DNA of 64,000 nt from Gemmatimonadota bacterium (GCA_003248075.1 QJYK01000207.1:4603-68602); one strand, 5' to 3'. Positions 16,382 to 50,770 are shown, numbered from the stretch's first letter. Numbers and translations: made by a program. The notes: generated by a model not told the origin, from the letters alone.

Positions 16382-16534
16382 TCAGGCGGGCCCGTCGTCG
16401 TCGTCCATGAGGATGCGCAGGGGCGGGTCGTCGAGGTCGTCGAACTGTCCGTCCCGGGCGGCGCGCAGGAAGAGAATCAGAAAGACGGCGGCCAACCCCA
16501 GGGCGATCGGCACCAGGAAGAGCAGCGAGTTCAC
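16382..16534 (-). CDS. ccoS: cbb3 oxidase maturation protein CcoS/FixS
   Basis: GTG 16534 overlaps the ccoI stop (GTGA). 'NSLLFLVPIALGLAAVFLILFLRAARDGQFDDLDDPPLRILMDDDD' matches the CcoS pattern (TM + SGQ[YF]DDL + ILxDDD). Listed ORF 16382..16585 is over-extended. Confidence 0.8.
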   Translation of the reverse strand: MNSLLFLVPIALGLAAVFLILFLRAARDGQFDDLDDPPLRILMDDDDGPA

Positions 16535-18858
16535 GCGCCCCCCTCGCGACGACGGACCTCCGCCTCGACGCGCGAAGATCCCCATACGACCATCGCGCTC
16601 GACAGCGGCATGAGGACCGCTGCCACCAACGGGTTCACCCAGCCCAGCGCGGCCGCTCCGACGGCGACGATGTTGTAGCCGACGGACCGGGCCTGGTTCC
16701 TCCGGATCGCGCTGCGGCAGGCCTTGCTCGCCTGGATGCCCGTGACGAGGGGCAGCAGCGAGCCACCCGCCAGGACGCCGTCGGCCACGAGGATGCTGGT
16801 GGCCGAACCCGTGCCCATCGCGACTGCGACATCCGCGGCTGCGAGTGCGGGGCCGTCGTTCAGCCCGTCACCCGCGAACAGCACCCTCCGCCCACGGGCG
16901 CGAAGTGCCCGGATCATCGCGGCCTTTTCCTCCGGACCCGCCGCGGCCCGGACGTCGTCGATGCCGGTCGCACGCGCGATGCGGTTGGCCACCCGCTCCC
17001 GGTCGCCCGTGAGGAGCGTCACCTCCACCCCCAGCTCCCGCAGCCGACGCACGGCTTCGCCCGAGTCGTGCCGCAGGTTGTCCCCGAGGCGGAGCAGACC
17101 CGCGTACCCGTCGGGCCCCTCGAGGAGCAGGGCGTCGGGACCGCCGGACCGGAGGCTCCAGCACACGCCATCCACGAGCCCCGAGATCCCGACGCCCGCC
17201 ACCTCCACCACCTCGCTCGCGGAGGGCAGCGGGATCTCTCTCGCCGCCGCCTCCCGCACCACGGCCGCGGCTACCGGATGCCGGGAGTGACGCTCGAGCC
17301 CCGCGGCCACCCGAAGGTCTGCGTCGCGGGCGGAGACCACCTCGAATGCTCCGGCGGTCACCGTGCCGGTCTTGTCGAGCACGACCTGATCCACCACGGC
17401 GAGCTCGAGCAGTGCGTCGGCCGAGCGGAAGAGCAGGCCGCGACGGGCGACCGCTCCCAGTCCCGCGGCCGCGGCGAGGGGCCGCGACAACGCCAGGGCG
17501 CACGGGCACGCGACGACCAGGACCGCGATGGTGGCAGACAGCGCCGCGCCGGGATCCCCCAGGCGGGTCCACGCGACGAAGGTGCCACAGGCTATGGCGA
17601 GCGTGGCCGACGTGAACCATGGCGCGATGCGATCGGTGGAGGACGGCCGGGAGCCCCGGTCGGCGGCGCTACGAAGCTCCTCCGCCATGCGTCGCACGAC
17701 GGTGTCGTCCGCAGCCTCCGTGACGTCGACCGTCAGCGATCCGTCCACCACGACCGTCGCGGCCCAGACCCGGCCGCCCGCGGACACCTCCACCGGCGCC
17801 GACTCGCCGGTGAGGAGCGCCATGCGCACGCTGGCGCGACCCTCGACCGCGACGCCGTCCGCCGGCACCTCGTCCCCCGCAGAAACCACGATTCGGTCAC
17901 CCGGCCTCAGGCGCTCCGACGAGACCGTCTCGACGCGCGCGTCCACGAGTCGGCGGGCCGTGGGCGGCAGCGTCGCGGCGAGGGTCACGGCCGCCTCGGC
18001 GGCACGCCGCCGCCCTCGCGTCTCCATCAGTCGACCGGCCAGGAGGAGGGCCACGAGCATCGTCAGGGAGTCGAGGTAGGTGTCCCCTCCCCTCAGCGTG
18101 GCCCACCACCCCTGCGCGTACAGGATCACGATCGCCAAGGCGATCGGCACATCCATGTGCAGCGCGCGGTTGCGTAGGCCGGACCATGCCCCCGCGAAGA
18201 AGGGGGCGGCGCTCCAAGCGACGACGGGAGTGGCGAGGGCGAGCGACATCCACCGGAACAGCGCGGCGAAGCGCGCTTCCATGCCCGCCGTCCACCCCGC
18301 GTAGAGCGCGGCGGAGAACATCATCACGTTCACGGCGGCGAAGGCCGCCACGCCGAGCCGGAGTAGGAGGTCGCGGTCCGGACGGCCTTCCTCGCCGAGC
18401 ACCCGCGGACGGTAGCCCAGCGAGGCGATGCGGTCGGCCAGCTCGGAAAGTCGTACGGTGGCAGGGTCCCAGCGGAGCGTCGCCCGCCCGGTCGCGTAGC
18501 TCACCGTCGCTTCCGCGACGCCTCGCATCCTGCGCAGCACGCCCTCCGTGACCCACACGCACGATGCGCAACGCAGCCCGTCGATGGAGAGGCGGACGCT
18601 GCAGGTCCCATCCGCTCCGGCAGCCAGCGGTACGGCGTCCCACCCCCCCGGCATCGGCTCGGGACGCGGCGCGAACGCCTCCCGCTCCCGATAGTAGCGC
18701 TCGAGGCCGGCGCCGCGGATGATGGCATACGCCGCTTCGCACCCGGCGCAGCAAAAGGCATCACTCTCGCCCTCCACCACGGTTCCGCAGTGTGGGCAGC
18801 GCGAGGCGCCGCGGGTAGGCACCGCTGTGCCCGGCCTCAGAGTGGGTGCGAAGGCCAC
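16531..18858 (-). CDS. ccoI: copper-translocating P-type ATPase CcoI/FixI
   Basis: 775 aa. N-terminal 'CPHCG...FCCAGCEAAYAII', 'CPCAL' transmembrane metal motif, 'DKTGTVT' phosphorylation site, 'GDGLNDGPAL' hinge. Confidence 0.9.
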   Translation of the reverse strand: MAFAPTLRPGTAVPTRGASRCPHCGTVVEGESDAFCCAGCEAAYAIIRGAGLERYYREREAFAPRPEPMPGGWDAVPLAAGADGTCSVRLSIDGLRCASCVWVTEGVLRRMRGVAEATVSYATGRATLRWDPATVRLSELADRIASLGYRPRVLGEEGRPDRDLLLRLGVAAFAAVNVMMFSAALYAGWTAGMEARFAALFRWMSLALATPVVAWSAAPFFAGAWSGLRNRALHMDVPIALAIVILYAQGWWATLRGGDTYLDSLTMLVALLLAGRLMETRGRRRAAEAAVTLAATLPPTARRLVDARVETVSSERLRPGDRIVVSAGDEVPADGVAVEGRASVRMALLTGESAPVEVSAGGRVWAATVVVDGSLTVDVTEAADDTVVRRMAEELRSAADRGSRPSSTDRIAPWFTSATLAIACGTFVAWTRLGDPGAALSATIAVLVVACPCALALSRPLAAAAGLGAVARRGLLFRSADALLELAVVDQVVLDKTGTVTAGAFEVVSARDADLRVAAGLERHSRHPVAAAVVREAAAREIPLPSASEVVEVAGVGISGLVDGVCWSLRSGGPDALLLEGPDGYAGLLRLGDNLRHDSGEAVRRLRELGVEVTLLTGDRERVANRIARATGIDDVRAAAGPEEKAAMIRALRARGRRVLFAGDGLNDGPALAAADVAVAMGTGSATSILVADGVLAGGSLLPLVTGIQASKACRSAIRRNQARSVGYNIVAVGAAALGWVNPLVAAVLMPLSSAMVVWGSSRVEAEVRRREGGA

Positions 18859-18864
18859 GATCGG

Positions 18865-19047
18865 TCAGCGGTCCCCGTGCAGGTAGGACGGCGCCACCTC
18901 GTCGGCGCCCCGCACCGCGATCCAGATGAACGTCGCGTTCACGGCGATGACCACGGCCAGGGCAATGCCGATCGCGATCGGCCAAACGAGTTCGTGGCTC
19001 AACGTGAGGCGGCGCGCTGCCGTAACCCGCTCAGTCGTCCTGTCCAC
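18865..19047 (-). CDS. FixH/CcoH-like single-TM mini-protein (60 aa)
   Basis: Sits in the ccoH position between ccoG and ccoI. 'LVWPIAIGIALAVVIAVNATFIWIAVRGADEVAPSY' resembles only the N-terminal TM segment of FixH. Overlaps the ccoG 3' end by 17 nt. Confidence 0.5.
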   Translation of the reverse strand: MDRTTERVTAARRLTLSHELVWPIAIGIALAVVIAVNATFIWIAVRGADEVAPSYLHGDR

Positions 19048-20383
19048 CCAGGCTCGCTCCGGTCTTGAAGGTGGTCGGGAGGAGCAGCTCCGCCGTCGGT
19101 GATGCCACCCGCACCGTGAACGGTACCGTTCGACGGTTCGCCGCCTCGCGGGGAAGCCGAACGATCAAGGGCAACGTCACGGTCTGTTCCGGAGCCAGGC
19201 GGACCGGCACGGCGGTGACCTCGGCGCGATCGAGACCGTCGATCGCGATGTCGTACTCGACCGGCAGCTCAGACGGTTCGTTGTTCGTGATCCGCAGCAG
19301 GTACGTGTTGCGCACGAATCCGTCCGCGTCCTCGGTGTACAGCGAACCCGGTGCCCTGTTCACCGATGCCTCGAACGGCACCCTCGCGAGCACCAACACC
19401 ACGGCCGCGGCGGTGAGCGCCGTCAGCATTCCCCCGTACACCAGCGTGCGGGGGCGTAGCGGGCGGGACTCACGCCCCTCGTCTGCGGCGATCGAGCTGT
19501 ACCGCACCAGGGTGGGTTGGTCGAACCGGCTCATGACGCTCTCGCAGGCGTCCACACAGCGCGCGCACTGGATGCATTCCAGCTGAAATCCGTCGCGTAT
19601 GTCGATCCCCTGAGGGCACACCACGACGCATTTCTGGCACGCGATGCACCCGCCCTCGGGGCCACGCTTGGGACCCCGGGGCTCACCTCGCTTCGTGTCA
19701 TAGGAGATCAACAGGGTCTCCTCGTCCGTCAGGGCGCTCTGGAAGCGGGCGTAAGGGCACAAAAAGATGCAGAACTGCTCCCTGAACCAGACGAAGTCCA
19801 CGAACCAGAGCGCAGAGAAGATCGCCACGAAGGCGTACGAGGCGGCGCTCGCCTGGCCCGTCCACAGCGGGCGGGCACCGGCGAACAGGCTGGTCATGGC
19901 CATGCCCAGCAGAAGAGACACGCCGAGGAAGGCGGCCCACTTGACGATCTTCCTCCAGGCCTTGTCGAGAGACAGCCCCTGTGCGTCCCTCCTCTTACGG
20001 CGCGTCCGGTCGCCTTCGGTCCACTGCTCGAGCGGTCGGATCCAACTCTCCAGGAAGACGGTCTGGGGACAGGCGTATCCGCACCATATACGCCCGAAGA
20101 TCGCGGTGAAGAAGAACAGGGAGAACGCCAGGAACAAGAGCAGCAGGACCAGAAAGATCGTGTCCGAAGGCGTGTAAATTGCGCCCATGAGGTGGACCCG
20201 ACGATGGGGCAGGTCCAGCAGGACCATCGGGTGACCCCTCACCGTGATCCACGGCGCCACGAACAGAGCGGCGTGCAGCAGCAGGAACGTCCACCGGCGC
20301 ACGCTGGTGAATGCCCCGTGGATCGACTGCGGGTAGACCCACTCCCTGGACCCGGACATGCCGGGTAGCCGGACGACCGACAC
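19031..20383 (-). CDS. ccoG: cbb3 oxidase accessory protein CcoG/FixG (4Fe-4S ferredoxin-type)
   Basis: 450 aa. 'CGYACPQTVFLE', 'CIACQKCVVVCPQGIDIRDG..LECIQCARCVDAC', C-terminal Ig-like FixG_C region. Confidence 0.9.
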   Translation of the reverse strand: MSVVRLPGMSGSREWVYPQSIHGAFTSVRRWTFLLLHAALFVAPWITVRGHPMVLLDLPHRRVHLMGAIYTPSDTIFLVLLLLFLAFSLFFFTAIFGRIWCGYACPQTVFLESWIRPLEQWTEGDRTRRKRRDAQGLSLDKAWRKIVKWAAFLGVSLLLGMAMTSLFAGARPLWTGQASAASYAFVAIFSALWFVDFVWFREQFCIFLCPYARFQSALTDEETLLISYDTKRGEPRGPKRGPEGGCIACQKCVVVCPQGIDIRDGFQLECIQCARCVDACESVMSRFDQPTLVRYSSIAADEGRESRPLRPRTLVYGGMLTALTAAAVVLVLARVPFEASVNRAPGSLYTEDADGFVRNTYLLRITNNEPSELPVEYDIAIDGLDRAEVTAVPVRLAPEQTVTLPLIVRLPREAANRRTVPFTVRVASPTAELLLPTTFKTGASLGGQDD

Positions 20384-20395
20384 GCCGAGCTCCGT

Positions 20396-20995
20396 TCAGC
20401 CCACGGGATCGCCGGCGGACCCCGACGGGTCGGGCACGGCGTCCTCGCCCGATCCGAGGATGTCCCCGAGCGGACGTCCCGTCGCTTCGCTGTTCTTCGT
20501 GATCACGTACGCCGCCACCTGATTGATCTGCTCAGGACTGAGGATCCCACCCCACGGGATCATTCCCTTGGCGGGAACGCCCTGCGTGATCGTGGTCAGG
20601 ATGTCCTTGGCCTGGCCTCCGTGCAGCCATTCGTCGTCGAGAAAGGTCGGCCCGATGCCCCCCTCGAGGTTCTGGCCATGACAGACCACGCAGTTCTGCT
20701 GGAATACGGCCTCACCCGCCGCGACCGCCTCGGCGGTCACCGCGAAGTCGGCCGCCGCCGCGGCCAGCGCCTCCGCCTGCGCAGGCCACCGCGCCTCCGC
20801 CGCCGTCATCTCCTCCGAGAGCCGCCTCGCCTGCGACCGGTCACCGATCACGTGGTACCAGAGACCGTAGCCGACTGCCCACAGGACCGTGAACCAGAAG
20901 AGGCCCACCCACCAATCCGGGAGCGGGTTGTCGTACTCGTCGATGCCGTCCGCCTCGTCCGCATGACCGAGCAGGCGATTGGTATCCTTGCTCAC
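20396..20995 (-). CDS. ccoP: cbb3 oxidase subunit III CcoP, apparently monohaem
   Basis: 199 aa. FixP_N-like 'DEYDNPLPDWWVGLFWFTVLWAVGY'. A single CxxCH (CVVCH) with a Met ligand context 'KGMIPWG'. GTG start overlaps the ccoQ stop. Confidence 0.85.
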   Translation of the reverse strand: MSKDTNRLLGHADEADGIDEYDNPLPDWWVGLFWFTVLWAVGYGLWYHVIGDRSQARRLSEEMTAAEARWPAQAEALAAAAADFAVTAEAVAAGEAVFQQNCVVCHGQNLEGGIGPTFLDDEWLHGGQAKDILTTITQGVPAKGMIPWGGILSPEQINQVAAYVITKNSEATGRPLGDILGSGEDAVPDPSGSAGDPVG

Positions 20996-21171
20996 GCGTC
21001 ACCTCCATCCATGAACGGCATCCGGCCGATCTCCTCCATCATCGCCCGATGCTTCGGTCGATAGGCCCAGAAGACCCACCCGAGGAACACGGCCAGGAAC
21101 ACGACCGTCATCGCCCCCAGGACCCACCCGAGCTGGACGGACGCCGCGGCCTCCCTGAGAAGCGGGTTCAC
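20992..21171 (-). CDS. ccoQ: cbb3 oxidase small subunit CcoQ/FixQ (59 aa, below ORF-track cut-off)
   Basis: My translation: GTG 21171 (GTGA overlap with the ccoO stop) gives MNPLLREAAASVQLGWVLGAMTVVFLAVFLGWVFWAYRPKHRAMMEEIGRMPFMDGGDA; its TGA overlaps the ccoP GTG. Single TM plus 'AYRP.K' FixQ-like motif. Confidence 0.65.
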   Translation of the reverse strand: MNPLLREAAASVQLGWVLGAMTVVFLAVFLGWVFWAYRPKHRAMMEEIGRMPFMDGGDA

Positions 21172-21896
21172 TGTCCACCTCCCTGCGTGGCGAGGTGCTG
21201 CCTGCCCTCGACGCCGAGCCTCTGCAGGTACGCGATCAGCGCTACGATCTCGTCGTCCCAGGCGGCGGTGATCCCTGCCTGGGCGAGGTTGTCCACGATC
21301 ATCTGCCCGTCGGAACGGAGCCGGGCCGTCACCGCGCCCTCCTCCGTGGTCGTGTACGGCGTGCCGAGCTTGGCGAGCGCGGCCATGGAAGCCGTGACGT
21401 CGGCGGGATCGATCTTGTCCCGATGGAGCCAGGGATAGGTCGGCATCACCGAACCCGGTGAGGTCGCACGCGGATCACGCATGTGCTCGTAGTGCCACGC
21501 GTCCGGGTATTTCTGTCCGACCCTCTGCAGATCGGGGCCCAGGCGCCGGGACCCGAGCAGGAAAGGCCGGTCGTACTGGTATTCGGCGGCCCGGGTCCAT
21601 TCTCCGTAGCGTAGCATCTCGGCGCGCATGGGCCGGACCATCTGCGAATGGCACAGGTAGCACCCTTCACGGATGTAGATGTCCCGGCCGGCCACTTCCA
21701 GCGGGGCGTACGGCGTCACCCAGCCGGCCCGCTCCCACGACAGGGAGGATGTGCTGAACATCGGGATGATCTCCACCACGCCACCGACCGAGATCGCGAC
21801 CGTCGTCGCGATCGCGAAGATCGCCGCCTTCCCTTCGAAGAGTCGGCGGTGGAGTCGGCCATAGGCCTTCTCGGACTGGCTCTGATCGTTGCTCAT
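21168..21896 (-). CDS. ccoO: cbb3 oxidase subunit II CcoO (monohaem cytochrome c)
   Basis: 242 aa. 'GRDIYIREGCYLCHSQMVRP', 'GPDLQRVGQKYPDAWHYEHMRDPRATSPGSVMPTYPWL'. Confidence 0.92.
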   Translation of the reverse strand: MSNDQSQSEKAYGRLHRRLFEGKAAIFAIATTVAISVGGVVEIIPMFSTSSLSWERAGWVTPYAPLEVAGRDIYIREGCYLCHSQMVRPMRAEMLRYGEWTRAAEYQYDRPFLLGSRRLGPDLQRVGQKYPDAWHYEHMRDPRATSPGSVMPTYPWLHRDKIDPADVTASMAALAKLGTPYTTTEEGAVTARLRSDGQMIVDNLAQAGITAAWDDEIVALIAYLQRLGVEGRQHLATQGGGQ

Positions 21897-21906
21897 GGGT
21901 CGCCTC

Positions 21907-23358
21907 TCAGTCCGCGGCTACGGGCACGGGCTCGGCCGCCGGCCGCTCCGGTCCACGGATCGTCTGCCAGAAGTTCACAGCCATCATCACCGCCCCGGTG
22001 AGGTACATCGCTCCGCCCAGGAGTCGAATCCACAGGAACGGATTGAGGCGCGCCGTGATGTCCACGAAGATCGGGTTCGCGAGCTGGCCGGCGTCGTTGA
22101 GCGCACGCCACTGCAGCCCTTCCATGAGGCCCGCGGCCCACATGGACACGGTGTAGAGCACGATGCCGATGGTCGCCAGCCAGAAGTGGTGTGACGCCCA
22201 AGTCGGGTGCGCCAAGGGCCGCTTCCAGATGTTCTGCACCATCCAGTACAACATCCCGAACGAGATCATCCCCACCCATCCGAGCGCCCCGGAGTGGACA
22301 TGTCCGATGACCCAGTTGGTGTAGTGCGCGAGCCCATTGACCGCGCGGATCGACATCATCGGGCCCTCGAACGTGCTCATGCCGTAGAAGCTCACCGCAA
22401 CCACCATGAACTTCAGGATCGGATCGGTTCGGACCCGATCCCAGGCGCCACGGAGCGTCAGGAGCCCGTTGAGCATACCGCCCCATGAGGGCGCGATCAG
22501 CATGACGCTGAACACCATGCCCAGCGTTTGCGCCCAATCGGGAAGCGCCGAGTACAGGAGGTGGTGCGGCCCGGCCCAGATGTACAGAAAGACCAGGGCC
22601 CAGAAATGGATGATCGACAGCCGATAGCTGTAGACCGGTCGCTCGGCCGCCCGCGGCAGATAGTAGTACATGAGGCCCAGGAAGGGCGTGGTCAGGAAGA
22701 AGCCCACAGCGTTGTGTCCGTACCACCACTGCACGAGCGCGTCCGTGAGACCGGAGTAGACGGGGTAGGAGCGGAACCAGGTCGCCGGAACCGCCAAGCT
22801 GTTCACGATGTGCAGCACCGCGATCGTGATCACGAAGGACATGTAGAACCAGATCGCGACGTAGAGGTGCTGTACCTTCCGGCGCGCGAGGGTCCCGAAG
22901 AAGTTCACGCCGAAGACCACCCAGACGACGGTGATCAGCACGTCGATGGGCCAGATGAGCTCGGCGTACTCCTTCGATTGGGTCATGCCGAGGGGCAGCG
23001 TCACGGCAGCCAGCACGATGATGGACTGCCACCCCCAGAAGTGCACCCGCGACAGCGTGTCGCTGAACATCCGGGTGCGCAGCAGCCGCTGCGTGGAATG
23101 GTAGATGCCCGTGAAGACCACGTTGCCGCCGAAGGCGAAGATCACGGCGTTGGTGTGCAAGGGTCGCAGGCGACCGAACGTCGTCCATGGCAGCCCGAGA
23201 TTCGCGGGCCACCAAGCCAGCTGGAGCGCGATGATCACGCCGACCAGCATGCCCACGAGGGCCCAGACCACCGTCGCCGTGAAGAACATCTTCACGATGT
23301 CGAGGTCGTAGCCGACGTCCGTTCCGGCGGCGACTGTACCCGTCGTCGTCTTTTCCAT
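21907..23358 (-). CDS. ccoN: cbb3 oxidase catalytic subunit I CcoN
   Basis: Polytopic HCO subunit I of C-type. '[19 protein letters not shown]', '[15 protein letters not shown]', 'WAGPHHL', '[13 protein letters not shown]'. Start chosen at ATG 23358 (MEKTTT); the listed start 23388 is possible. Confidence 0.92.
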
Positions 23359-23436
23359 AAGGTTCCCTGATGAGGGTGGCTCCAGCATCCTCGATTGCGA
23401 CTACGCACCTGCGCGGGCAGTGCCCGCCTGAGCCCC

Positions 23437-34265: not shown

Positions 34266-35570
34266 TCACCGACAGGTGTCCACGTAGGGCTCGGCGCCCG
34301 GGTCGGTCGCGGTCGGATCTCCCACGATCCCCAGGAACAGCACCGTACCGGACAGACGCTCCCGTAGCGCGAAGGCGAACGGGCGATCCGCGATCACACC
34401 GAGGAAGGAGGTCGCGCCGACGCCCACGCCGGTGACCGCGGCCGCGCGCGTGCCCCGCTCGTCCACCTCGATGAACGTCTTCTGGCGGACGAAGTCGAGG
34501 CACATCTGGTCGCCGATGGGAGACAACCCGGTGAAGTCCGCGCCCGGCGCGAACGCGCCCTCCATGCCCATCGCCTTCAGCGCGTCGTTCAGGTATGCAT
34601 CGTACGACAGCGTGAGCCGGGGGATCGATACGAGATCCACCTCCACCGGGTTCAGCGCGGAGACGAGCTCGGCCCACGCGCCCGCGTCGAACCCGCTCAG
34701 GAGCGCACGCACGTCGGTGCCGGGGTGCGGGACGACGACGACCATGGAGAACGCGCCGCCCCCGTATGGCAGCTCGACCGCGGCGAATCCGGGTCCTCCG
34801 CCGAGGGGGAGCTCCACCCCGTCGAGGCTCATCATGTCGACGTCCACCGTCGTCCCGTCCGCACGGGTGAACGCCCGCACCCGGGTGTCCGAAGGGTCGA
34901 AGCGGGTGGACCACGCGCCGTCGAAATAGATGGCGTTGATGAGGAGCATCACCGCCGTCGGATCCAGGGAATCGATGATCCCGTCGATCAGCCCATCCGT
35001 GCTCTCCCGCACCCACCGGTTGATCTCGTCGACCGTCGACGGATCTGCGAAATCACGGGTTTCGGTCCGCGCGTCGAAGGCCGCGCGGGCGACGTCCAGG
35101 AACGCCGGCTCGACAGGCACCCCGATCCGGGCCCAGATCGAGCTCGCGATGTCGAAGTGCACGTCCGGGTCGAGCTCGGTCAGGAGATCGATCAGTCCGC
35201 GGTACGACTCGTTGATCTGGACCTGATCCAGCGCTCCGAAGCGCAGGGTCGAGCGCATCTCGTCGAATGTCTGGGACCTGGCTCCGTTCAGGGTCATGCC
35301 CAGGGCCATCGAGGCGCTCAACGGAGACAGCACGACGTTCGGACGCCGATCCTTCTCGAGGACCGCCCTCATCAGGTCGAAGCCGAATGCGTTCGCGCCC
35401 GTGATCACCTCGACTTCCGAGGTGGTCAGCTGCCTGGGTAGCTCGGTGATGGGTACGAAGCCGTCGCCGGGCCCGGACGGATCACCACACGCCGCCGCCA
35501 CCAGCGCAAGAGCCAACGTGAAGCGCCGTGCGCTGGACACCCCCGGGCGCAGCCGGTCGGTACCTTGCAT
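34266..35570 (-). CDS. serpin (serine protease inhibitor family), lipoprotein-type signal
   Basis: 434 aa. 'LALALVAAACGD' lipobox. Serpin core 'NVVLSPLSASMALGMTLNGA', 'LINAIYFDGAWSTRF', hinge/RCL 'EVDERGTRAAAVTGVGVGATS', 'ADRPFAFALRE'. Confidence 0.88.
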   Translation of the reverse strand: MQGTDRLRPGVSSARRFTLALALVAAACGDPSGPGDGFVPITELPRQLTTSEVEVITGANAFGFDLMRAVLEKDRRPNVVLSPLSASMALGMTLNGARSQTFDEMRSTLRFGALDQVQINESYRGLIDLLTELDPDVHFDIASSIWARIGVPVEPAFLDVARAAFDARTETRDFADPSTVDEINRWVRESTDGLIDGIIDSLDPTAVMLLINAIYFDGAWSTRFDPSDTRVRAFTRADGTTVDVDMMSLDGVELPLGGGPGFAAVELPYGGGAFSMVVVVPHPGTDVRALLSGFDAGAWAELVSALNPVEVDLVSIPRLTLSYDAYLNDALKAMGMEGAFAPGADFTGLSPIGDQMCLDFVRQKTFIEVDERGTRAAAVTGVGVGATSFLGVIADRPFAFALRERLSGTVLFLGIVGDPTATDPGAEPYVDTCR

Positions 35571-43753: not shown

Positions 43754-44266
43754 TCAGCGCACCTCCAGCGACCGGCCTGCCGTGTCGAGCGTGACGAGCA
43801 CGACCCGCCCGGAGATGGCCGTCACGGTCCCGCGCCACTCGAGCGAGGGGGCTCCCGGCGGGAGCTGGGCACCTCCGCCCGAAAGCGGGAGGTAGGCGAC
43901 GTCCAGGGCCCGTGGACCGGGGTCGAGCCCCAGCTCCCGGAAGACATACATGGGCCGGTCGGCCCGCGCACCCGACGCGACCACGGTGTCGCGGATGAGC
44001 TCCCGCCCGTCCACCGCGACGGTCAGGCTGTACGGAAGCGTCCCGCCCGAGCACACGGTGGGGGTGCGCATGTGGGTCGGAAGCCTCGCCAGCTCCTCCT
44101 CCGTCCGGGGTCGGCAGGACGCCACCGAAACGGGGTCGAGCCGCCACGACAGGCGCAGCGAAGACTCGTCGGGTCCGCGCAGCGACAGGGGCACTCGGGA
44201 CAGGAACGCGGTCCCGGCCACCAGGCCGAGAGCCACCGCGACACCGACGGGCGTGCGAGCCGTCAT
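43754..44266 (-). CDS. membrane-anchored protein, unknown function, translationally coupled to the cytochrome b fusion gene
   Basis: ATG 44266 overlaps the upstream stop (ATGA). 'MTARTPVGVAVALGLVAGTAFL' anchor. No family recognised. Confidence 0.6.
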   Translation of the reverse strand: MTARTPVGVAVALGLVAGTAFLSRVPLSLRGPDESSLRLSWRLDPVSVASCRPRTEEELARLPTHMRTPTVCSGGTLPYSLTVAVDGRELIRDTVVASGARADRPMYVFRELGLDPGPRALDVAYLPLSGGGAQLPPGAPSLEWRGTVTAISGRVVLVTLDTAGRSLEVR

Positions 44267-45897
44267 CCGACCTCCGCGGCGGATGCCTCCGGCACCTCGC
44301 ACTCGGCCTCCACGTCGATGCGCTCCTCGGCGGTGGCCCTGGCGAGTCTCTTCACCTCCGCTCGGAACCCGTTCAGGGCCGCGGCCACGCGCAGAGGCTC
44401 AGCTTCGGCGGCGTACACAATGCGTACTCGCGCCCGATCCACGCGCTCCTTGAGCTCGGCCTCCCTCCCCTGGTGGACGCGGGCCTCCAGGTAGCCCACG
44501 CCCTCGCGGTTCCAGCAGTCCCGCGGCGGACATGCGACCAGAAGGACCCCGCCGGCGCCCGCGCGCACCAGGTACTCGATGACCGAGGTGTGGACGCTGC
44601 CCGAGCACGATACGGGCAGGACCGGCGCGTCGAGGAAGCGTTCCTCACGCGCTGCGCCGCCCGACCCGCGATCGCAAGCTACCAGCACGATGTCGTCCGC
44701 CCCAGGGCGGACGTGGTCGAGGAACGCGCGCACGCGCTCCAGCTGATCCCGCCCCGTGCGTCCCGGGGGTCCGACGCCCATGGGTGCACACGAACCCGCG
44801 CAGATGCCGCAGCTCACGCACAGCCCCGGGTCCACACGGGCCACCCAACCGTCGCGACCGTCGGAGCGCCGTACCATGGCGATCGCCTCGTACGGACAAT
44901 CGTGGTAGCACTGCTCACACCCCGTGCAGAAGCGCTCGTTGACGACCGATGCAGGCGGCCGGCGCCGGCGCGTCGGACGCGTCAGGAGCGGGACAGCGGC
45001 AAGGATTCCGACCACGAGCAACCCCAGGAGCCACACCCACCCGGCACCGAGCGGCCGGGTGAACGGCAGCCAGAACCCGTACAGGACGTCGAAGGGCACC
45101 CGTCCCGGGAGCGCGAGCAGGTCGGCCTCCGGCGCCACCCCGATGGGCCACGCCACGGAAGCCACCAGGAGCAGGGCCACTGCGCCCCGCAGCAGGGCGC
45201 GGGGGGGGAGCAGCGACGCCCTCGCGAGGCGGGAGACATGGATCCACAGCAAAAGCGCGACGCCCACGGGAAGCGCGATGTGGGCGAAGAGATTCAGGAA
45301 GAAGAACGCCGGGGGCATCGGCCGCTCTCCCACGAACGCGCGGGAGATCGGCTCGGAGAAGATCGGAAGCGCATCGAGCCATCGCGCGCCTTCGGCGGCG
45401 AGCAGGTGCGCCTGCTCATCCCAGACCATCACGTATCCGGTCCAGCCGCAGAGCAGGAAGACGCAAAAGAGCGCGACGCCCGAGACCCACGCGAGGGCTC
45501 GCGGACCCCAGGCGCGTCCCTGGGCGAACATCCTCACGGCGTGCACCAGCGCGGCCACGAGCGCCACCGCGGACGCATAGCGGTGTAGCGTTCGGATCCA
45601 GCGTCCGGCCCAAACCTGCGCGGTGATCCCGGCTACCGAGGTGTGGGGGCTACCGATCCGGTAGAAGACCAACAGGTACAGGCCGCTCACGAGGAGCACC
45701 ACGAAGCTGGTGACCACCAGGGCGCCCGAGTGGTAGAGCGGATTGAGCCGCCACCCATAGAGGGCGTTCATCCATCCGTCGAGGCGCGCCAGCGTGCGTC
45801 GGCTACCCCCGCGGAGCAGGGTGATGGTGCGGTGCATCGAACGGGGTTCGGGAGAATCTGTCGGGTCCGCTGATTCTTGCGCGGGCCTATTTATCAT
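44263..45897 (-). CDS. fusion protein: dihaem cytochrome b (N-terminal) + 2x[4Fe-4S] ferredoxin + MvhD/FlpD-like domain
   Basis: His pairs 14 residues apart in two helices (TLHRY..LVHAV; FAHIA..WIHVS). 'CTGCEQCYHDCP' and 'CVSCGICAGSCAP'. 'IVLVACDRGSGG...VLPVSCSGSVHTSVIEYLVRAGAGGVLLVACPPRDCW'. The start may be ATG 45837 instead of 45897. Confidence 0.85.
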   Translation of the reverse strand: MINRPAQESADPTDSPEPRSMHRTITLLRGGSRRTLARLDGWMNALYGWRLNPLYHSGALVVTSFVVLLVSGLYLLVFYRIGSPHTSVAGITAQVWAGRWIRTLHRYASAVALVAALVHAVRMFAQGRAWGPRALAWVSGVALFCVFLLCGWTGYVMVWDEQAHLLAAEGARWLDALPIFSEPISRAFVGERPMPPAFFFLNLFAHIALPVGVALLLWIHVSRLARASLLPPRALLRGAVALLLVASVAWPIGVAPEADLLALPGRVPFDVLYGFWLPFTRPLGAGWVWLLGLLVVGILAAVPLLTRPTRRRRPPASVVNERFCTGCEQCYHDCPYEAIAMVRRSDGRDGWVARVDPGLCVSCGICAGSCAPMGVGPPGRTGRDQLERVRAFLDHVRPGADDIVLVACDRGSGGAAREERFLDAPVLPVSCSGSVHTSVIEYLVRAGAGGVLLVACPPRDCWNREGVGYLEARVHQGREAELKERVDRARVRIVYAAEAEPLRVAAALNGFRAEVKRLARATAEERIDVEAECEVPEASAAEVG

Positions 45898-45898
45898 A

Positions 45899-45910
45899 TC
45901 ATCATGATGA
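45899..45910. promoter_or_regulatory. perfect 12-bp palindrome TCATCATGATGA in an AT-rich island: candidate Rrf2 operator in a divergent promoter region
   Basis: 45887-45923 reads ctatttatcatatcatcatgatgaaatcaatctatcc in an otherwise very GC-rich window. It lies between divergent genes 44263..45897 and 45966..46409. Confidence 0.5.
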
Positions 45911-45965
45911 AATCAATCTATCCCCGGAGAGCCACGCGGCTCAAGCCATACAAGGGAGCACGGTC

Positions 45966-46409
45966 CTGATCCTCTCGCAGACCTCGATCTACGCGCTGAA
46001 GGCGGTCCACTATCTGGCGAAGGAAGAGCGCGCTCGACCGGTTCCCGTCGACGAGATGTCGGAGGCGCTCGGCATCCCCCGGAACTATCTGTCCAAGATC
46101 CTCCACGCGCTCGCCCGCGGGCGTCTGCTGGAGTCGACAAGAGGCCCGCGGGGCGGCTTCACGCTTGCCCGAGAGCCGGCTTCGATCGTGCTCCAGGAGG
46201 TGGTCGAGGTGTTCGACGATATCGGCAGCACCTCTCGATGCCTCCTTGGACGACCGCAGTGCAGCGATGGCAACCCCTGTCCGGTCCACGGGCGTTGGAA
46301 GGAGCTCTCGGGCTCCATGATGGCTTTTTTCCGCGACACCACCGTGCTCATGGACTCGGCCGTTCCCGAGCCGCCGAGCCCAGCAACCCGAGGAGGTCGT
46401 GATGGATGA
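45966..46409 (+). CDS. Rrf2-family (IscR/NsrR-like) Fe-S transcriptional regulator; apparent CTG start
   Basis: Listed ORF starts only at 46056 (MSEALGIPRNYLSKIL...). The same frame upstream encodes 'LILSQTSIYALKAVHYLAKEERARPVPVDE', which aligns with the Rrf2 N-terminus. There is no ATG/GTG/TTG in frame. AGGGAG (45953-45958) lies 7 nt before CTG 45966. Cluster ligands 'CLLGRPQCSDGNPCPVH'. Confidence 0.8.
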   Translation: MILSQTSIYALKAVHYLAKEERARPVPVDEMSEALGIPRNYLSKILHALARGRLLESTRGPRGGFTLAREPASIVLQEVVEVFDDIGSTSRCLLGRPQCSDGNPCPVHGRWKELSGSMMAFFRDTTVLMDSAVPEPPSPATRGGRDG

Positions 46410-46572
46410 TCCTCAGGCAGCCCCCCAGGGAGACACCCCGGTCCCCTTCCTCCAACGGATGTACGATCGCCCGTTCCTGCTCCTCGGGCTCGGGCTCACC
46501 GTCATGTTGGTCCTCTTCACCTTCTGGGGCCTATGGGAGATCGTCCGCCTTCCCACGGCCCCCCTGCCCTGA
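46402..46572 (+). CDS. 56-aa single-TM protein (possible oxidase subunit IIa analogue), below ORF-track cut-off
   Basis: My translation: GGAGG, 6 nt, then ATG 46402 gives MDDPQAAPQGDTPVPFLQRMYDRPFLLLGLGLTVMLVLFTFWGLWEIVRLPTAPLP. Overlaps the Rrf2 stop by 8 nt. The listed 98-aa ORF 46406..46702 is in another frame and is Arg/Ser/Pro-rich. Confidence 0.5.
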   Translation: MDDPQAAPQGDTPVPFLQRMYDRPFLLLGLGLTVMLVLFTFWGLWEIVRLPTAPLP

Positions 46573-46587
46573 CCCGGAGGGGCGACG

Positions 46588-47184
46588 ATGTACACGACCG
46601 GCATCACACCGCAGAAGGGTGTCTGGTGGAAGCCCGCTCACAAGAGCGAGAAGGTCTGGTTCACGATCGCGTTCGCATGGTGCATGGTGCTCTTCGCCAT
46701 GATGCCCTTCTGGCACCTGCGGGGAGGCCAGAACCCCTCGGGAACCCGCTCACGGGTCGACCCGGCGGCCTACCGCACCCGCGTTCAGGAGTTCGTCCAG
46801 CAGTATCAGGTCGCGACCGACAACGGCATCCCCGTGGTCGCGCCCCCGGCGGGAAGCGACATCTATCTGCAGGGGCAGATGTGGATGTGGCTGCCCGTGC
46901 TCCAGCTGGAGGAGGGGTCGGAGTACACGCTCCACCTGTCCTCGGTGGACGTGAACCACGGCTTCAACCTCTACCCCTTCAACATCAACTTCCAGGTCGT
47001 GCCGGGTTACGACTACGCCCTGCGCGTCACCCCCACCGAGGCCGGTGACTTCCGAGTCGTCTGCAACGAGTTCTGCGGAGTCCTCCACCACACCATGGTA
47101 GGCAGGATCATCGTCCGCGAGCGGGGCAGCTCGGCGGTTGCCGCGCTCCTCGGCTCGGACGTCGACAAGGGAGGCGACCGATGA
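46588..47184 (+). CDS. heme-copper oxidase subunit II, B-type (ba3-like), CuA site intact
   Basis: 198 aa. One TM. Cupredoxin 'LHLSSVDVNHGFNL' and 'FRVVCNEFCGVLHHTMVGRIIV' (H...CxExCGxxHxxM). Confidence 0.88.
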   Translation: MYTTGITPQKGVWWKPAHKSEKVWFTIAFAWCMVLFAMMPFWHLRGGQNPSGTRSRVDPAAYRTRVQEFVQQYQVATDNGIPVVAPPAGSDIYLQGQMWMWLPVLQLEEGSEYTLHLSSVDVNHGFNLYPFNINFQVVPGYDYALRVTPTEAGDFRVVCNEFCGVLHHTMVGRIIVRERGSSAVAALLGSDVDKGGDR

Positions 47185-48926
47185 GCACCACCACCGGCGC
47201 CCCCGCATCGGGCGCTTTCCGTGTCTGCCCCACCACGGGGCTCAAGGTCCACCGGGATGCCGACGCGCTCATCAAGGCGAACGCGGTAGTCGCCACCGTC
47301 GCGCTCCTGGTCGGCGGGTTGGCAGCGATCCTCGTGCTGCTCACGCGCTGGCAGGCGGTCCACCTCCTGGACGAGGTCTGGTTCTACCGCGTCCTGACCA
47401 TCCACGGGATGAACATGCTCATCTTCTTCATCCTGTTCTTCGAGATGGCGGTCCTGTACTTCGCTTCCGCGGTCCTGCTGAACTCCCGGGTGGCGGCACC
47501 CCGGGTCGGCTGGGTGGCGTTCGCGCTCATGGTCCTGGGCGCGGGCATGGTCGAGTGGACCATGTTTGCGGGAAAGGCGGACGTCCTCTTCACCTCGTAC
47601 GTGCCCCTGCGGGCCCATCCCCTCTTCTACCTGGGTGTGATCCTCTTCGCAGTCGGCGCCCTGGTCGTGGTGAGCATCTTCTTCGCGACCCTCGTCGTGG
47701 CGAAGAACGAGCGCACGTACGAGGGGTCGGTCCCGCTCGTCACGTTCGGCGCAATCACCGCCGCCATCATCGCGGTGATCACGCTGGTGCACGGCGCGGC
47801 GATCTACATCCCTACCTTCCTGTGGTCGTTGGACCTCATGCCCATGGACGCCGAGGTCTACCGCATGGTGTGGTGGGGGCTCGGCCATTCCTCGCAGCAG
47901 ATCAACGTGGCCGCCATGGTGGCGATCTGGTACCTGCTCGGCGCGCTCACCGTAGGTGCCGTCGTGGTGAACGAGAAGATCAGCCGCACGGCCTTCGTGC
48001 TCTACATCCTCTTCATCTCGATGGCGTCGGCCCACCACCTCCTGGTGGATCCCGGCTTCGGCCCGGCCTGGAAGATCGTCAACACGTCGTATTTCATGTA
48101 CATGGCGGTGCTCGCCTCCATGTTGCACGGCTTCACCGTGCCCGCAGGCGTGGAGCTCGGCATGCGGCTCCGGGGGTTCACGCAGGGCGTGTTCGGGTGG
48201 CTGCGGAGGGCGCCCTGGGGTGATCCCGGGTTCAGCGCCCTGGTCCTCTCGGTGGTTGTCTTCGGCTTCGTCGGAGGCATCACCGGCGTGACCTTCGGAA
48301 CCGAGCAGATCAACATCATCGCGCACAACACGCTGCGGATCCCCGGGCACTTTCACGCGACGGTGGTCAGCGGCACCGCGATGGCCTTCATGGGCATCAC
48401 CTATTACGTGATCCCGCTGATCTTCCGTAAGCGCGTGGCCTTCTACGGGATGGCACGGTGGCAGCCCTACGTGTTCGCGGTCGGCATGCTCATCTTCTCC
48501 ATGGCGATGACATTCGCCGGTACGTTCGGCGTTCCGCGCCGCCACTGGGACATCACGTTCACCAACGCGCCGTTCGACGTGGCTTACTCGCCGGCCGTCG
48601 ACCTCATGATCGGCGTGATGGCGGTCGGAGGACTCCTCGCGGCGCTGGGAGGCGGGATGTACATCCTGGTCACCGTGTGGTCGGTCTTCTTCGGCAAGCC
48701 CTTGGGTGAGGACTGCACAGACGCGGCGCTGGCAGGCTCGGTGCCCCCGGGCGTGTATGCACGCCCGTTCCTCGAGCTCCCCGAGGAGGATGTGGCAGTG
48801 GAGGTCCACGGAAGGCTCGGGACCATGCCCGGCACGATGGTCCTCGTGCTCGTGTTCCTGGCGGCTTTCGTGCTCTACTACTTCGCGAACTGGAAGCTGC
48901 TCTCCTTCGTCTGGCGGGTCGGTTGA
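47181..48926 (+). CDS. heme-copper oxidase subunit I, B-type-like, lacking the active-site Tyr (candidate NO reductase-type enzyme)
   Basis: 581 aa with ATGA overlap with subunit II. Six canonical His are present ('LTIHGMNMLIFF', 'WWGLGH', 'MASAHHLLV', 'RIPGHFHATVV'), but helix VI reads GHSSQQ, not GHPxVY. The 598-aa minus ORF 47013..48809 is an antisense shadow. Confidence 0.9.
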   Translation: MSTTTGAPASGAFRVCPTTGLKVHRDADALIKANAVVATVALLVGGLAAILVLLTRWQAVHLLDEVWFYRVLTIHGMNMLIFFILFFEMAVLYFASAVLLNSRVAAPRVGWVAFALMVLGAGMVEWTMFAGKADVLFTSYVPLRAHPLFYLGVILFAVGALVVVSIFFATLVVAKNERTYEGSVPLVTFGAITAAIIAVITLVHGAAIYIPTFLWSLDLMPMDAEVYRMVWWGLGHSSQQINVAAMVAIWYLLGALTVGAVVVNEKISRTAFVLYILFISMASAHHLLVDPGFGPAWKIVNTSYFMYMAVLASMLHGFTVPAGVELGMRLRGFTQGVFGWLRRAPWGDPGFSALVLSVVVFGFVGGITGVTFGTEQINIIAHNTLRIPGHFHATVVSGTAMAFMGITYYVIPLIFRKRVAFYGMARWQPYVFAVGMLIFSMAMTFAGTFGVPRRHWDITFTNAPFDVAYSPAVDLMIGVMAVGGLLAALGGGMYILVTVWSVFFGKPLGEDCTDAALAGSVPPGVYARPFLELPEEDVAVEVHGRLGTMPGTMVLVLVFLAAFVLYYFANWKLLSFVWRVG

Positions 48927-49819
48927 CCAGCACGTTGACCAGGGCCGAGCGGTGGGCCCTCACGGCCCTGGGGTTTCTGGTGGCGGTCACAGCGGCGTGG
49001 TGGGCGCTCGCCCTGTGGCCGCTGCCGGACGCGCCGCCGGCGTGGCTGGAGCGGACCCGCGCCGTATGCTTCAACGCGGGCCCGACGGGTCTCCCCGACC
49101 CGTCGGGGTGGATCCTGTTGGTGGGACAGCCGCTGGGGATGCTCGGGACTCTGCTGGCCGGGTGGAAGACCGACGTCCTGTCCGCGCTGCGCGTGCTCGG
49201 GCGGTCGTGGTCAGGGCGTTCCGCCATGGGGACGGTGGCGATCGCGGTCGTGTTCGGCGCGGGGGCGGCCGCTACTCGCGTCGCCACGGCCCGCCAGCCG
49301 TCGGCCGGGCTGACAGATGCGGGGGACGTCCCGCCCACCTACCCGCGCCTCGACCGCCCGATTCCCGACATGTCGGGGCTGGTCGACCAGAAGGGACGGC
49401 CCTTCGAGCCGAGTGCCCTGAGTGGCCGTGCGGCTCTGATCACCTTCGGGTACGGTCATTGCGAGACCGTATGCCCGCTCCTGGTGCGCTCGGCCCTGCA
49501 GGTGCGGGACGGGCTCCTCGACCAGCGCCCCCTGACCGTGGTGACGATCACGCTCGACCCGTGGCGGGACACGCCGTCGCGCCTGCGGGCGATCGCGGAC
49601 ACGTGGGGGCTGGGCGCCGGGGACGTTCTCCTCGGCGGCGACGTCGACGCGGTCGAGGCGGCCCTGGACGCCTGGGACGTGCCACACACCCGGGACGAGC
49701 GGACCGGGGAAGTGATCCATCCCGCCCTGACCTATCTCGTCGAACCGGACGGGACGGTCGCCTACGCGTCGACGGGGGGCCCGAGCCAGCTCCGAGCGCT
49801 AGCGCTCCGGCTCAGGTAG
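48923..49819 (+). CDS. SCO1/SenC-type copper chaperone fused to an N-terminal three-TM domain
   Basis: TTG start overlapping the subunit I stop. Three TM-like segments in residues 1-125. SCO fold 'ALITFGYGHCETVCPLL' (CxxxC) and 'GEVIHPALTYLVEPDG' (conserved His). Confidence 0.8.
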   Translation: MTSTLTRAERWALTALGFLVAVTAAWWALALWPLPDAPPAWLERTRAVCFNAGPTGLPDPSGWILLVGQPLGMLGTLLAGWKTDVLSALRVLGRSWSGRSAMGTVAIAVVFGAGAAATRVATARQPSAGLTDAGDVPPTYPRLDRPIPDMSGLVDQKGRPFEPSALSGRAALITFGYGHCETVCPLLVRSALQVRDGLLDQRPLTVVTITLDPWRDTPSRLRAIADTWGLGAGDVLLGGDVDAVEAALDAWDVPHTRDERTGEVIHPALTYLVEPDGTVAYASTGGPSQLRALALRLR

Positions 49820-49846
49820 CCCGCCGCCCGGCCAGGGGGTCCGGCG

Positions 49847-50770
49847 TTACCGACCGCCCCGCGCCCGATCCCGCTTGTCGCGCGGAATGTCCACCTGCCC
49901 CCCGATCCCCGAGTAGCGGATGCCACCGCTGCCATCCCGGCCCACGCGGAAATCCCCTCGGACGTCGCGTACCGAGATCGAGCCGGAGCCGTCCGAATCG
50001 ATGACCACGTCGCGCTGGACCTCGAAGACCGAGATGGAGCCAGAGCCATCGCGTACGCGAACCGTGCCGAGCACGTCCGTCACGTCCACCTCTCCCGAGC
50101 CGTCCTCGATCTCCACGTCGCCCGAGACACCTCTCACGTCGATCTCCCCCGACGAGTCGTCGATCCAGAGCGGGCCCTCGACCTGCCTCACGAGAATTGA
50201 CCCCGAGGAGTCGTCGATGCGCGTCTCGCCGGTGCCCCCGACCTCCATCGAGCCCGACGAATCGTCGATGTCGACCGCCATGTGCAGCGGCACCTCCACG
50301 ACCAGATCCAGACGGGCGTACTCGTTGTCCCACCCCCGGGACCGATCGGGGTAGTGGGCCGACAAGACCACGTCGCGATCGACCCTCTCCAGCGTGAGCG
50401 TCAGCTCGTCCAGAGCTCGCTCGTCGGAAGCGCAGGCGCGTGCCACCGCCTGCACCCGGGTCAGGCCCTCACGCCCCTGCACGGAGAGCTCGCCCGACCC
50501 TGCCGACAGCCGCAGCCACTCGTCCGCCGAAGCCGCCAAGGCGACCCGCCGCTCCGCCTCGAAGTCGCAGCGGCCGTTTCGCGCCAACACCGAGATGTCG
50601 ACGTCGACGTCGATATCCACCGGGTCCAGCTTCGTGGCCTGCGCGGTCACGTCCAGTCGGGTCGCGCCGTCCGACACCTCGCCCGCGAACAGGCCCATCG
50701 CCCAGCCGCCACCGACGCCGAGCGCGCCGAATCCCAGGAACATCGTCGTCAGCTTCAATCCTCGAATCAT
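49847..50770 (-). CDS. DUF4097-like beta-strand-repeat (putative adhesin-fold) protein, membrane-anchored
   Basis: GGAGGA, 8 nt, then ATG 50770 (alternative start 50812). 'MIRGLKLTTMFLGFGALGVGGGWAMGLF'. Repeats 'IDDSSGSMEV / IDDSSGSILV / IDDSSGEIDV / IEDGSGEVDV / VRDGSGSISV / IDSDGSGSISV'. Listed ORF 49847..51475 is over-extended. Confidence 0.75.
   Translation of the reverse strand: MIRGLKLTTMFLGFGALGVGGGWAMGLFAGEVSDGATRLDVTAQATKLDPVDIDVDVDISVLARNGRCDFEAERRVALAASADEWLRLSAGSGELSVQGREGLTRVQAVARACASDERALDELTLTLERVDRDVVLSAHYPDRSRGWDNEYARLDLVVEVPLHMAVDIDDSSGSMEVGGTGETRIDDSSGSILVRQVEGPLWIDDSSGEIDVRGVSGDVEIEDGSGEVDVTDVLGTVRVRDGSGSISVFEVQRDVVIDSDGSGSISVRDVRGDFRVGRDGSGGIRYSGIGGQVDIPRDKRDRARGGR

Follow-up and report, generated by a model that had tools for sequence, protein, structure and literature searches.

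A Gemmatimonadota Gene Cluster for a Predicted Nitric Oxide Reductase of the eNOR Family, Its Regulator, and a Copper Chaperone

We analyzed a 64,000-nucleotide stretch of DNA from a Gemmatimonadota bacterium (GCA_003248075.1 QJYK01000207.1:4603-68602; the whole stretch is called the window below), which carries a gene cluster for an Rrf2-family regulator, subunits I and II of a heme-copper enzyme, a small membrane protein, and a copper chaperone. This cluster very probably encodes a nitric oxide (NO) reductase of the eNOR family, together with its regulator and copper chaperone. The window comes from a metagenome-assembled genome; to judge by the public names of 85-89% identical proteins, the host lineage probably belongs to the order Longimicrobiales of the Gemmatimonadota, and the G+C content of the window is ~70% and evenly distributed. 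By sequence, subunit I of the enzyme is a B-family-derived heme-copper protein with six His ligands, K-channel-like residues, and Gln240 at the site of the cross-linked Tyr, and the CuA site of subunit II is complete. A Gln conserved at the cross-link Tyr position marks the eNOR subunit I (PMC8756737, section 2.7.1). The window enzyme shows this Gln at His+4 together with the six His, the B-family affinity, the intact CuA motif, and the K-channel-like residues, and in a tree built from distances only, it groups with sequences from reported eNOR hosts. The preliminary description of these genes had hesitated between a B-family-derived NO reductase family, with eNOR among those named, and a new active-site variant that it could not place. 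The first alternative was supported, in agreement with the sequence identities, the CuA subunit, the K-channel residues, and the test for a single clade; the second was not supported, Gln at His+4 being the published residue that defines eNOR, and the unplaced Gln variant therefore belongs to this family. Thus, the window enzyme is a further member of the known eNOR family. Its active-site variant, fold, and operon core have already been described, and it therefore holds nothing new for enzymology.

The assignment of the active site was based on three alignments. In a HMMER search of PDB sequences, the strong matches of subunit I were all B-family oxidases, led by the 7DEG oxidase and the ba3 oxidase of Thermus thermophilus (E values of ~1e-45 to 1e-44), and the query WWGLGHSSQQINV was set on FWWTGHPIVYFWL of ba3, so that GHSSQQ fell on GHPIVY and Gln240 on Tyr237. 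The same register was obtained from MAFFT with plasmid-borne homologues and from an HMM-based site table. Both earlier claims about subunit I were borne out by these comparisons, namely that the motifs TIHGM, WWGLGH, SAHH, and GHFH retain all six His and that Gln occupies His+4 (GHSSQQ versus GHPxVY). In the site table, the heme ligands were H75, H390, and H392, with a His/His pair at the low-spin heme, and the non-heme metal ligands were H236, H285, and H286; Gln239-Gln240-x-Asn242 was found where ba3 has V-Y-F-W, and the K-channel-like residues were Y251, S313, H316, and T319. According to the published comparison of this position (Table A4 after Hemp & Gennis 2008; PMC8756737), Tyr is found in oxygen reductases, Glu in cNOR and qNOR, Asn in sNOR and CuANOR, Asp in gNOR, and Gln in eNOR.

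The purified eNOR of Rhodothermus marinus reduced NO but not O2, and contains a-type (As) hemes, a subunit of the CuA type, and a K-channel-like path for protons that is conserved (PMC11214002). The enzyme of R. marinus DSM 4252 (Rmar_0161; PMC11214002, bioRxiv 10.1101/2021.10.15.464467) resembles that of the window in its B-family-derived subunit I with Gln, its CuA subunit II, and its K-channel-like residues, whereas the window operon belongs to another phylum, the Gemmatimonadota, and has an Rrf2 gene at its head. The ba3 oxidase of T. thermophilus (PDB 1EHK, 1XME, 3S8F) is among the closest solved structures and ranked second in Foldseek. It shares with the window enzyme the six His ligands, the equivalents of S309 and Y248 (S313 and Y251), a CuA subunit II, and a small one-helix protein encoded upstream; however, the two subunits I are only ~25-33% identical, and, from ba3 to the window enzyme, Tyr237 is changed to Gln240, Val236 to Gln239, Trp239 to Asn242, Tyr244 to Val, and Thr312 to His316. 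With a low-confidence AlphaFold2 (AF2) model of subunit I as the Foldseek query, B-family oxidases stood at the top, and cbb3, cNOR, and qNOR were far below.

We addressed the distribution of related enzymes by searching plasmids, protein cluster representatives, and genomes. The tblastn identities against plasmids were bimodal, with 49-55% to a group carrying the double Gln (QQ type) and ~28-34% to ba3-type oxidase genes; the homologues were 55% (Defluviimonas), 49% (T. thermophilus), and 55% (Thermomicrobium roseum) identical to the window protein. In the alignment and the site table, these three plasmid groups had GH(S/G)(S/A)QQ(I/V)N in common. The Thermus homologue has GHFK for GHFH, which corresponds to a His/Lys low-spin heme pair (site table), and such ligation has been reported for some eNORs (PMC11214002). 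On the T. thermophilus plasmid pHB5018d (L002, 8858-14392), the eNOR homologue adjoins genes for a NirK-like/cupredoxin fusion, a cytochrome c, an Rrf2 protein, and a DUF542 protein, and these surroundings resemble a compact NO-handling island.

We then searched 1.84 billion cluster representatives without a profile, and among the sequences found, the site table gave 37 with QQ, 6 with Gln-Tyr (QY), and 15 with the canonical Val-Tyr (VY). One QQ representative was haloarchaeal (Natrarchaeobius), which agrees with the occurrence of eNOR in haloarchaea as originally described. The QY group was archaeal (Hodarchaeales and Thermoproteota; including P0124, P0127, P0131, and P0144) and 38-45% identical to the window protein; its helix VI reads H-x-x-Q-Y-x-N, in which the Tyr is kept beside an eNOR-like Gln at +3 and Asn at +6, and His stands at the T312 site. 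This group may be the oxygen-reductase stock from which eNOR arose. Four heme-copper subunit I homologues (P0175, P0178, P0215, and P0256, one of them from Dehalococcoidia) had Tyr aligned at H282 and H384, and their helix VI read H-x-x-H-Y, which reflects either a misalignment or an odd active site.

A DNA-signature scan for W-G-x-G-H-x-x-Q-Q-[IV]-N, with one genome for each GTDB species, gave at least 120 matches, and 124 eNOR-type loci were taken into a census (counts below are among the matches listed). Subunit I was 48-79% identical to the window protein at every signature locus listed; thus, there were no chance matches among them. The hosts included Accumulibacter, Gallionella, Magnetospirillum, and Anaerolineales, all of which have been named as eNOR hosts in the literature (PMC8756737, PMC11214002, PMC13592168, and the Ferrigenium preprint), and no Rhodothermus record was present among the signature matches listed. 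In a neighbor-joining tree, the 25 sampled QQ sequences formed one clade with zero intruders (bootstrap 77), which included Accumulibacter, Gallionella, a haloarchaeon, and Thermus, and in which the window protein adjoined a Longimicrobiales genome. The deep branching of this distance tree is unreliable, because the distances to the cbb3 outgroup were saturated. An 87% identical relative (L001, on a 4.1-Mb contig) had the same gene layout, including a divergently oriented gene pair that is described below. For comparison, eNOR has been reported in 547 GTDB genomes, and the corresponding figure for IMG metagenomes is 2,709 (PMC11214002, Table 1).

Across the 124 loci, the following positions of subunit I were at least 97% conserved: H75, E88, W232, H236, Q239, Q240, N242, Y251, Y275, H285, H286, S313, H316, and H390. 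T319, which is present in the window protein, was Thr, Ser, or Ala among its relatives (site table). E88, in the FFEMA segment of helix II (about 47442-47444), was conserved to this degree in the QQ clade and missing from the aligned ba3-type sequences. Subunit II has an N-terminal membrane helix and a cupredoxin domain, and its CuA motif was intact, as had been claimed, with both DVNHGF and CNEFCGVLHHTM present; the CuA ligands are H124, C159, E161, C163, H167, and M170. Glu21 sits directly before the membrane helix and, like the CuA ligands, was at least 97% conserved (107 loci). Glu15 of the K path in ba3 subunit II likewise lies just before the membrane helix. E21 of subunit II, together with Y251, S313, H316, and T319 of subunit I, fits the K-channel-like path described for eNOR.

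Other families of heme-copper enzymes were compared by the same residues. A ba3-type oxygen reductase was rejected, with Gln240 at the cross-link Tyr site and Ile279 at the Tyr position of the C family. In nNOR, cNOR, and qNOR, a Glu ligand occupies the Tyr position; the low-spin heme of nNOR has His/Met ligands, and cNOR and qNOR are of C-family ancestry. These three were rejected on the Gln, rather than Glu, of the window enzyme, its His/His low-spin ligands, and the weakness of the structural matches to cNOR and qNOR. The cNOR of Pseudomonas aeruginosa (NorBC, PDB 3O0R) and qNOR share with the window enzyme the overall reaction and the lack of a cross-link Tyr; however, Glu at His+4 serves them as a FeB ligand, they have either a quinol site or a cytochrome c subunit, they lack a conserved cytoplasmic proton channel, and their Foldseek matches were much weaker (E values of 9e-5 and worse). 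The bNOR (qCuANOR) of Bacillus azotoformans and sNOR are B-family-related NO reductases with cupredoxin subunits and, like the window enzyme, are without the active-site Tyr, but their residue at this site is Asn (PMC8756737, Table A4), where the window enzyme has Gln, and they were rejected on this residue. In gNOR, one active-site His is replaced by Asp and subunit II is without CuA ligands (PMC11214002), whereas the window enzyme has all three metal His and a full CuA motif; gNOR was rejected as well.

Several points weigh against the eNOR assignment or limit it. The kinship of the window protein with the purified Rmar_0161 was inferred through other taxa, and the non-heme metal of eNOR may be Fe or Cu. 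The AF2 model of subunit I, which was built from an alignment of 50 close relatives, was poor in the catalytic core (mean predicted local distance difference test score, pLDDT, of 60; <50 over residues 242-394), and it supports a fold-level match to ba3 only. No nirK, nirS, nosZ, ctaA, or ctaB gene was found within the 64-kb window, and neither the eNOR operon nor the rest of the window held a gene for heme O or heme A synthase. Finally, the regulator gene is without a canonical start codon, and NO sensing is not established, because the regulator resembles IscR more than NsrR.

The absence of nitrite and nitrous oxide reductase genes from the window bears on the physiological role. It is possible, although we consider it doubtful, that this eNOR-family enzyme detoxifies NO when the cell is under microoxic or nitrosative stress and is not used in respiratory denitrification. 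Such a role, which has also been raised for eNOR in the Ferrigenium preprint (10.64898/2026.01.22.701106), is favored by this absence, by the stress-type Fe-S regulator at the head of the operon, and by a cbb3 oxidase for low O2 nearby; the preliminary description had noted a canonical cbb3 oxidase in the window, and ccoN, ccoO, ccoP, ccoG, and ccoI were indeed located at 16531-23388 on the minus strand. However, the conserved K-channel-like residues suggest energy coupling, R. marinus uses its eNOR in complete aerobic denitrification (PMC11214002), and the absence of nir and nos genes covers the 64-kb window, such that these genes may sit elsewhere in the genome.

Two further explanations concern the active site itself. 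The enzyme might be a B-family oxygen reductase in which a Tyr from another helix replaces that of helix VI, in the manner of cbb3. In cbb3, the Tyr precedes the HH pair of helix VII by six residues, a placement that was reportedly described by Hemp et al. (2006). Y275 (helix VII) and Y304 (helix VIII) were invariant in the QQ clade and missing from the aligned ba3-type sequences, and the closest solved structures are ba3 oxidases, all of which would suit a migrated Tyr. However, at the place where cbb3 has its Tyr, counted back six residues from the first His of the HH pair, the window enzyme has Ile279, and Y275 precedes H285 by ten residues, ~three helical turns deeper in the membrane and approximately level with Y244 of ba3 (Val in eNOR); from the helix geometry, Y275 is more likely to be part of the proton path. 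In addition, no such Tyr appeared in the models of the authors of the R. marinus study, and the purified eNOR was without O2 reduction (PMC11214002). We therefore regard a migrated Tyr as very improbable. Still less credible is a new Gln-type active site outside all described NO reductase families, which is invited by the generic COX1 matches in Pfam and NCBIfam and by public names such as cytochrome c oxidase or cbb3-type subunit I, but is opposed by the published use of this Gln as the eNOR diagnostic (PMC8756737), by the same signature in at least 120 species-level genomes, literature-named eNOR hosts included, and by the monophyly of the QQ sequences in the neighbor-joining tree.

The organization of the eNOR operon and of the genes next to it is given in table 1. 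The ORF list and the Pfam matches (Rrf2, COX2, COX1, and SCO1-SenC) agreed with the earlier reading of five codirectional, overlapping or closely spaced genes; the second of these had been described as a 56-amino-acid ORF with one transmembrane helix, and the single helix stood, whereas the length was corrected to 57 amino acids. The 3' end of the Rrf2 frame overlaps this small ORF by 11 nt, a 15-nt gap separates the small ORF from the subunit II gene, and the junctions of subunit II with subunit I and of subunit I with SCO are 4-nt overlaps. In NCBIfam, the operon proteins had superfamily-level or subthreshold matches only.

Table 1. Genes and candidate operator of the eNOR region (feature, position in the window, strand, and basis of the call)
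Rrf2-family regulator, 147 aa	45966..46409	+	Pfam Rrf2, 100 bits; TIGR00738, 112 bits
Single-transmembrane-helix protein, 57 aa	46399..46572	+	ORF call; without Pfam or NCBIfam match
Subunit II, CuA, 198 aa	46588..47184	+	Pfam COX2, 23 bits; NCBIfam CoxB/NosZ CuA-region matches
Predicted eNOR catalytic subunit I, 581 aa	47181..48926	+	Pfam COX1, 205 bits
SCO1/SenC-type copper chaperone, 298 aa	48923..49819	+	Pfam SCO1-SenC, 85 bits
Cytochrome b6-like/2x[4Fe-4S]/FlpD-MvhD fusion	44263..45897	-	Pfam, NCBIfam, PDB phmmer
Partner of the cytochrome b fusion, 170 aa	43754..44266	-	Without Pfam match
Palindrome ATCATATCATCATGAT, candidate operator	45893..45908	.	In the 68-bp divergent intergenic region

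The 57-amino-acid protein occupies the position of cbaD (subunit IIa) in ba3 operons. Its homologues were found by tblastn directly 5' of the subunit II gene in 74 of the 124 loci, with P16, Q19, D23, L29, G32, W43, and G44 near-invariant (at least 97% conserved). The SCO protein is membrane-anchored, carries the CxxxC motif CETVC, and is presumably needed for CuA loading; by tblastn, a homologue lay 3' of subunit I in 52 loci, and a second, divergent SCO class was present in 39 more. The gene order in other phyla was small ORF, subunit II, subunit I, and then variable genes, among them heme o synthase (38 loci) and hemerythrin (10 loci). The series subunit II, subunit I, heme o synthase, and sco1 has been described as a very common eNOR layout (Ferrigenium preprint, 10.64898/2026.01.22.701106). 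In Ferrigenium straubiae KS, as in the window, the genes for subunits II and I are followed by sco1, with a gene for a cytochrome b/[Fe-S] protein beside them. However, its accessory genes lie 3' on the same strand, and heme o synthase is among their products, as is a larger cytochrome b/FeS/FAD/NADH protein, whereas in the window the cytochrome b/FeS/MvhD gene is transcribed divergently and the operon begins with an Rrf2 gene. The Gallionella loci of the census had the same arrangement as Ferrigenium, with the cytochrome b/[Fe-S] gene alongside. In a Magnetospirillum metagenome-assembled genome (L026, 4993-6982), the genes for eNOR, ctaB, SCO, and cytochrome b are followed by another COX1-like gene, which is very divergent (Pfam, 50.9 bits), and by one that resembles COX2.

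The Rrf2 protein was compared with characterized members of its family. The previously reported ligand pattern C-x6-C-x5-C-x2-H was present in the frame translated from 45966 and aligned on C92, C98, C104, and H107 of IscR, which gave the best alignment. The equivalog scores were 73.9 bits for IscR (TIGR02010, cutoff 207.55) and 36.8 bits for NsrR (NF008240, cutoff 182), and NsrR in the PDB was matched at an E value of 8e-4 only; the identification as NsrR was rejected on the equivalog score, far under its cutoff. The protein shares the winged-helix Rrf2 fold with IscR (Escherichia coli, PDB 4HF0) and NsrR (Streptomyces coelicolor, PDB 5N07), but its gene is partnered with a respiratory enzyme and not with isc or hmp genes. 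A link from this regulator to NO sensing is plausible. No ATG, GTG, or TTG start was found near the N-terminus of the frame. The codon at 45966-45968 is CTG, which aligns with the ATG of orthologues, and a Shine-Dalgarno-like AAGGGAG stands at 45952-45958, seven bases 5' of it; this CTG is a probable start codon. The gene thus has either a noncanonical start or is weakened or defective. Rrf2 genes adjoined the eNOR genes in 9 of the 124 loci, from several lineages.

The palindrome upstream of the operon (ATCAT-N6-ATGAT) is perfect, has its only exact match in the 64-kb window at this place, and shares bases with the start codon of the cytochrome b gene on the minus strand. ATCATAT-N3-C-ATGAT was observed at the equivalent place in six related loci (L001, L062, L073, L065, L042, and L054), and the palindrome is a candidate operator for the Rrf2 protein. 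A scan of 45600-50200 gave no sigma-70-like promoter, and terminator-like sites were at chance level. In two Acidobacteriota loci, L063 (about 4530-4560) and L127 (about 1220-1245), a different palindrome, TATGAC-N4-GTCATA, was observed, with the cytochrome b gene on one side and the eNOR operon on the other, and no Rrf2 gene was detected in either locus, which suggests another regulator.

The divergent gene pair encodes, first, a cytochrome b6-like di-heme membrane domain with two H-x13-H pairs that is fused to 2x[4Fe-4S] ferredoxin and FlpD/MvhD domains; in a PDB phmmer search, this protein matched cytochrome b6 (E value of 4e-14), and HdrA and MvhD matched the tails. Homologues were found in 73 of the 124 eNOR-type loci (including L001, L003, L026, and L071), with the layout kept in L001 and in the Defluviimonas plasmid, and the gene was on the same strand as the eNOR genes in Proteobacteria but divergent in Gemmatimonadota and Acidobacteriota. 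The Ferrigenium preprint, which reports a similar gene for Ferrigenium only, regards cytochrome b/Fe-S genes as unusual (10.64898/2026.01.22.701106); our census of 124 loci suggests that they are common near eNOR. The second gene encodes a 170-amino-acid partner with an N-terminal membrane helix and a beta-sandwich domain (AF2 pLDDT of 82.8), for which the AF2 model had no significant fold match in the PDB. By tblastn, it was present in 27 of the 124 loci, always adjoining the cytochrome b gene, and a word-indexed search gave only 9 homologues.

These observations raise a broader proposal, which we put forward tentatively and, taken as a whole, consider rather unlikely: the eNOR genes might be part of a larger conserved module, in which the accessory pair is dedicated to electron transfer or cofactor maturation and is coregulated by the Rrf2 protein. 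For example, the pair could act as a quinol-linked donor or as a helper of heme A formation at low O2, and, in Gemmatimonadota and Acidobacteriota, an IscR-like Rrf2 protein on a shared ATCAT-N6-ATGAT operator would coregulate both halves. As read from the sequences compared here, the features that appear to go beyond the described literature are the IscR-like Cys3-His Rrf2 regulator, the conserved palindrome, and the divergent cytochrome b/Fe-S gene across phyla.

For the eNOR enzyme itself, the following mechanism can be proposed. The family catalyzes the reaction 2 NO + 2 e- + 2 H+ -> N2O + H2O with a-type (As) hemes and does not reduce O2 (PMC11214002). In the window enzyme, electrons would pass from a periplasmic donor through CuA, which SCO would load, to the low-spin heme (H75/H392) and on to the high-spin heme (H390) and the non-heme metal (H236/H285/H286). 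Protons would be taken up from the cytoplasm through Glu21 of subunit II and Y251, S313, H316, and T319 of subunit I, and, with this cytoplasmic uptake, the reaction would be electrogenic. The 57-amino-acid protein may be a structural subunit comparable to subunit IIa of ba3. The Rrf2 protein is predicted to hold a Fe-S cluster on its Cys3-His ligands and to bind the ATCAT-N6-ATGAT palindrome; damage to the cluster by NO or redox stress would cause it to release the DNA or to change its control, and the eNOR operon would thereby be induced together with the divergent cytochrome b/Fe-S pair. Elsewhere in the window, a full-length serpin gene was observed at 34266-35570 on the minus strand (Pfam Serpin, 306 bits).

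In public records, the gene goes under the name of cytochrome c oxidase or cbb3-type oxidase subunit I. Earlier work on Ferrigenium was led astray by this same misannotation (10.64898/2026.01.22.701106), and enor ranked first among nor types in both abundance and expression in a 2026 estuary study (PMC13592168). Beyond the assignment of the enzyme, two modest leads remain; one is the Rrf2 regulator and the conserved palindrome that goes with it, and the other is the cytochrome b/Fe-S protein, which co-occurs widely. Taken together, the results suggest that the subunit I gene is better read as that of a nitric oxide reductase than as that of a cytochrome c or cbb3-type oxidase, and, with this identity, the Gemmatimonadota lineage is likely to be a producer of N2O.

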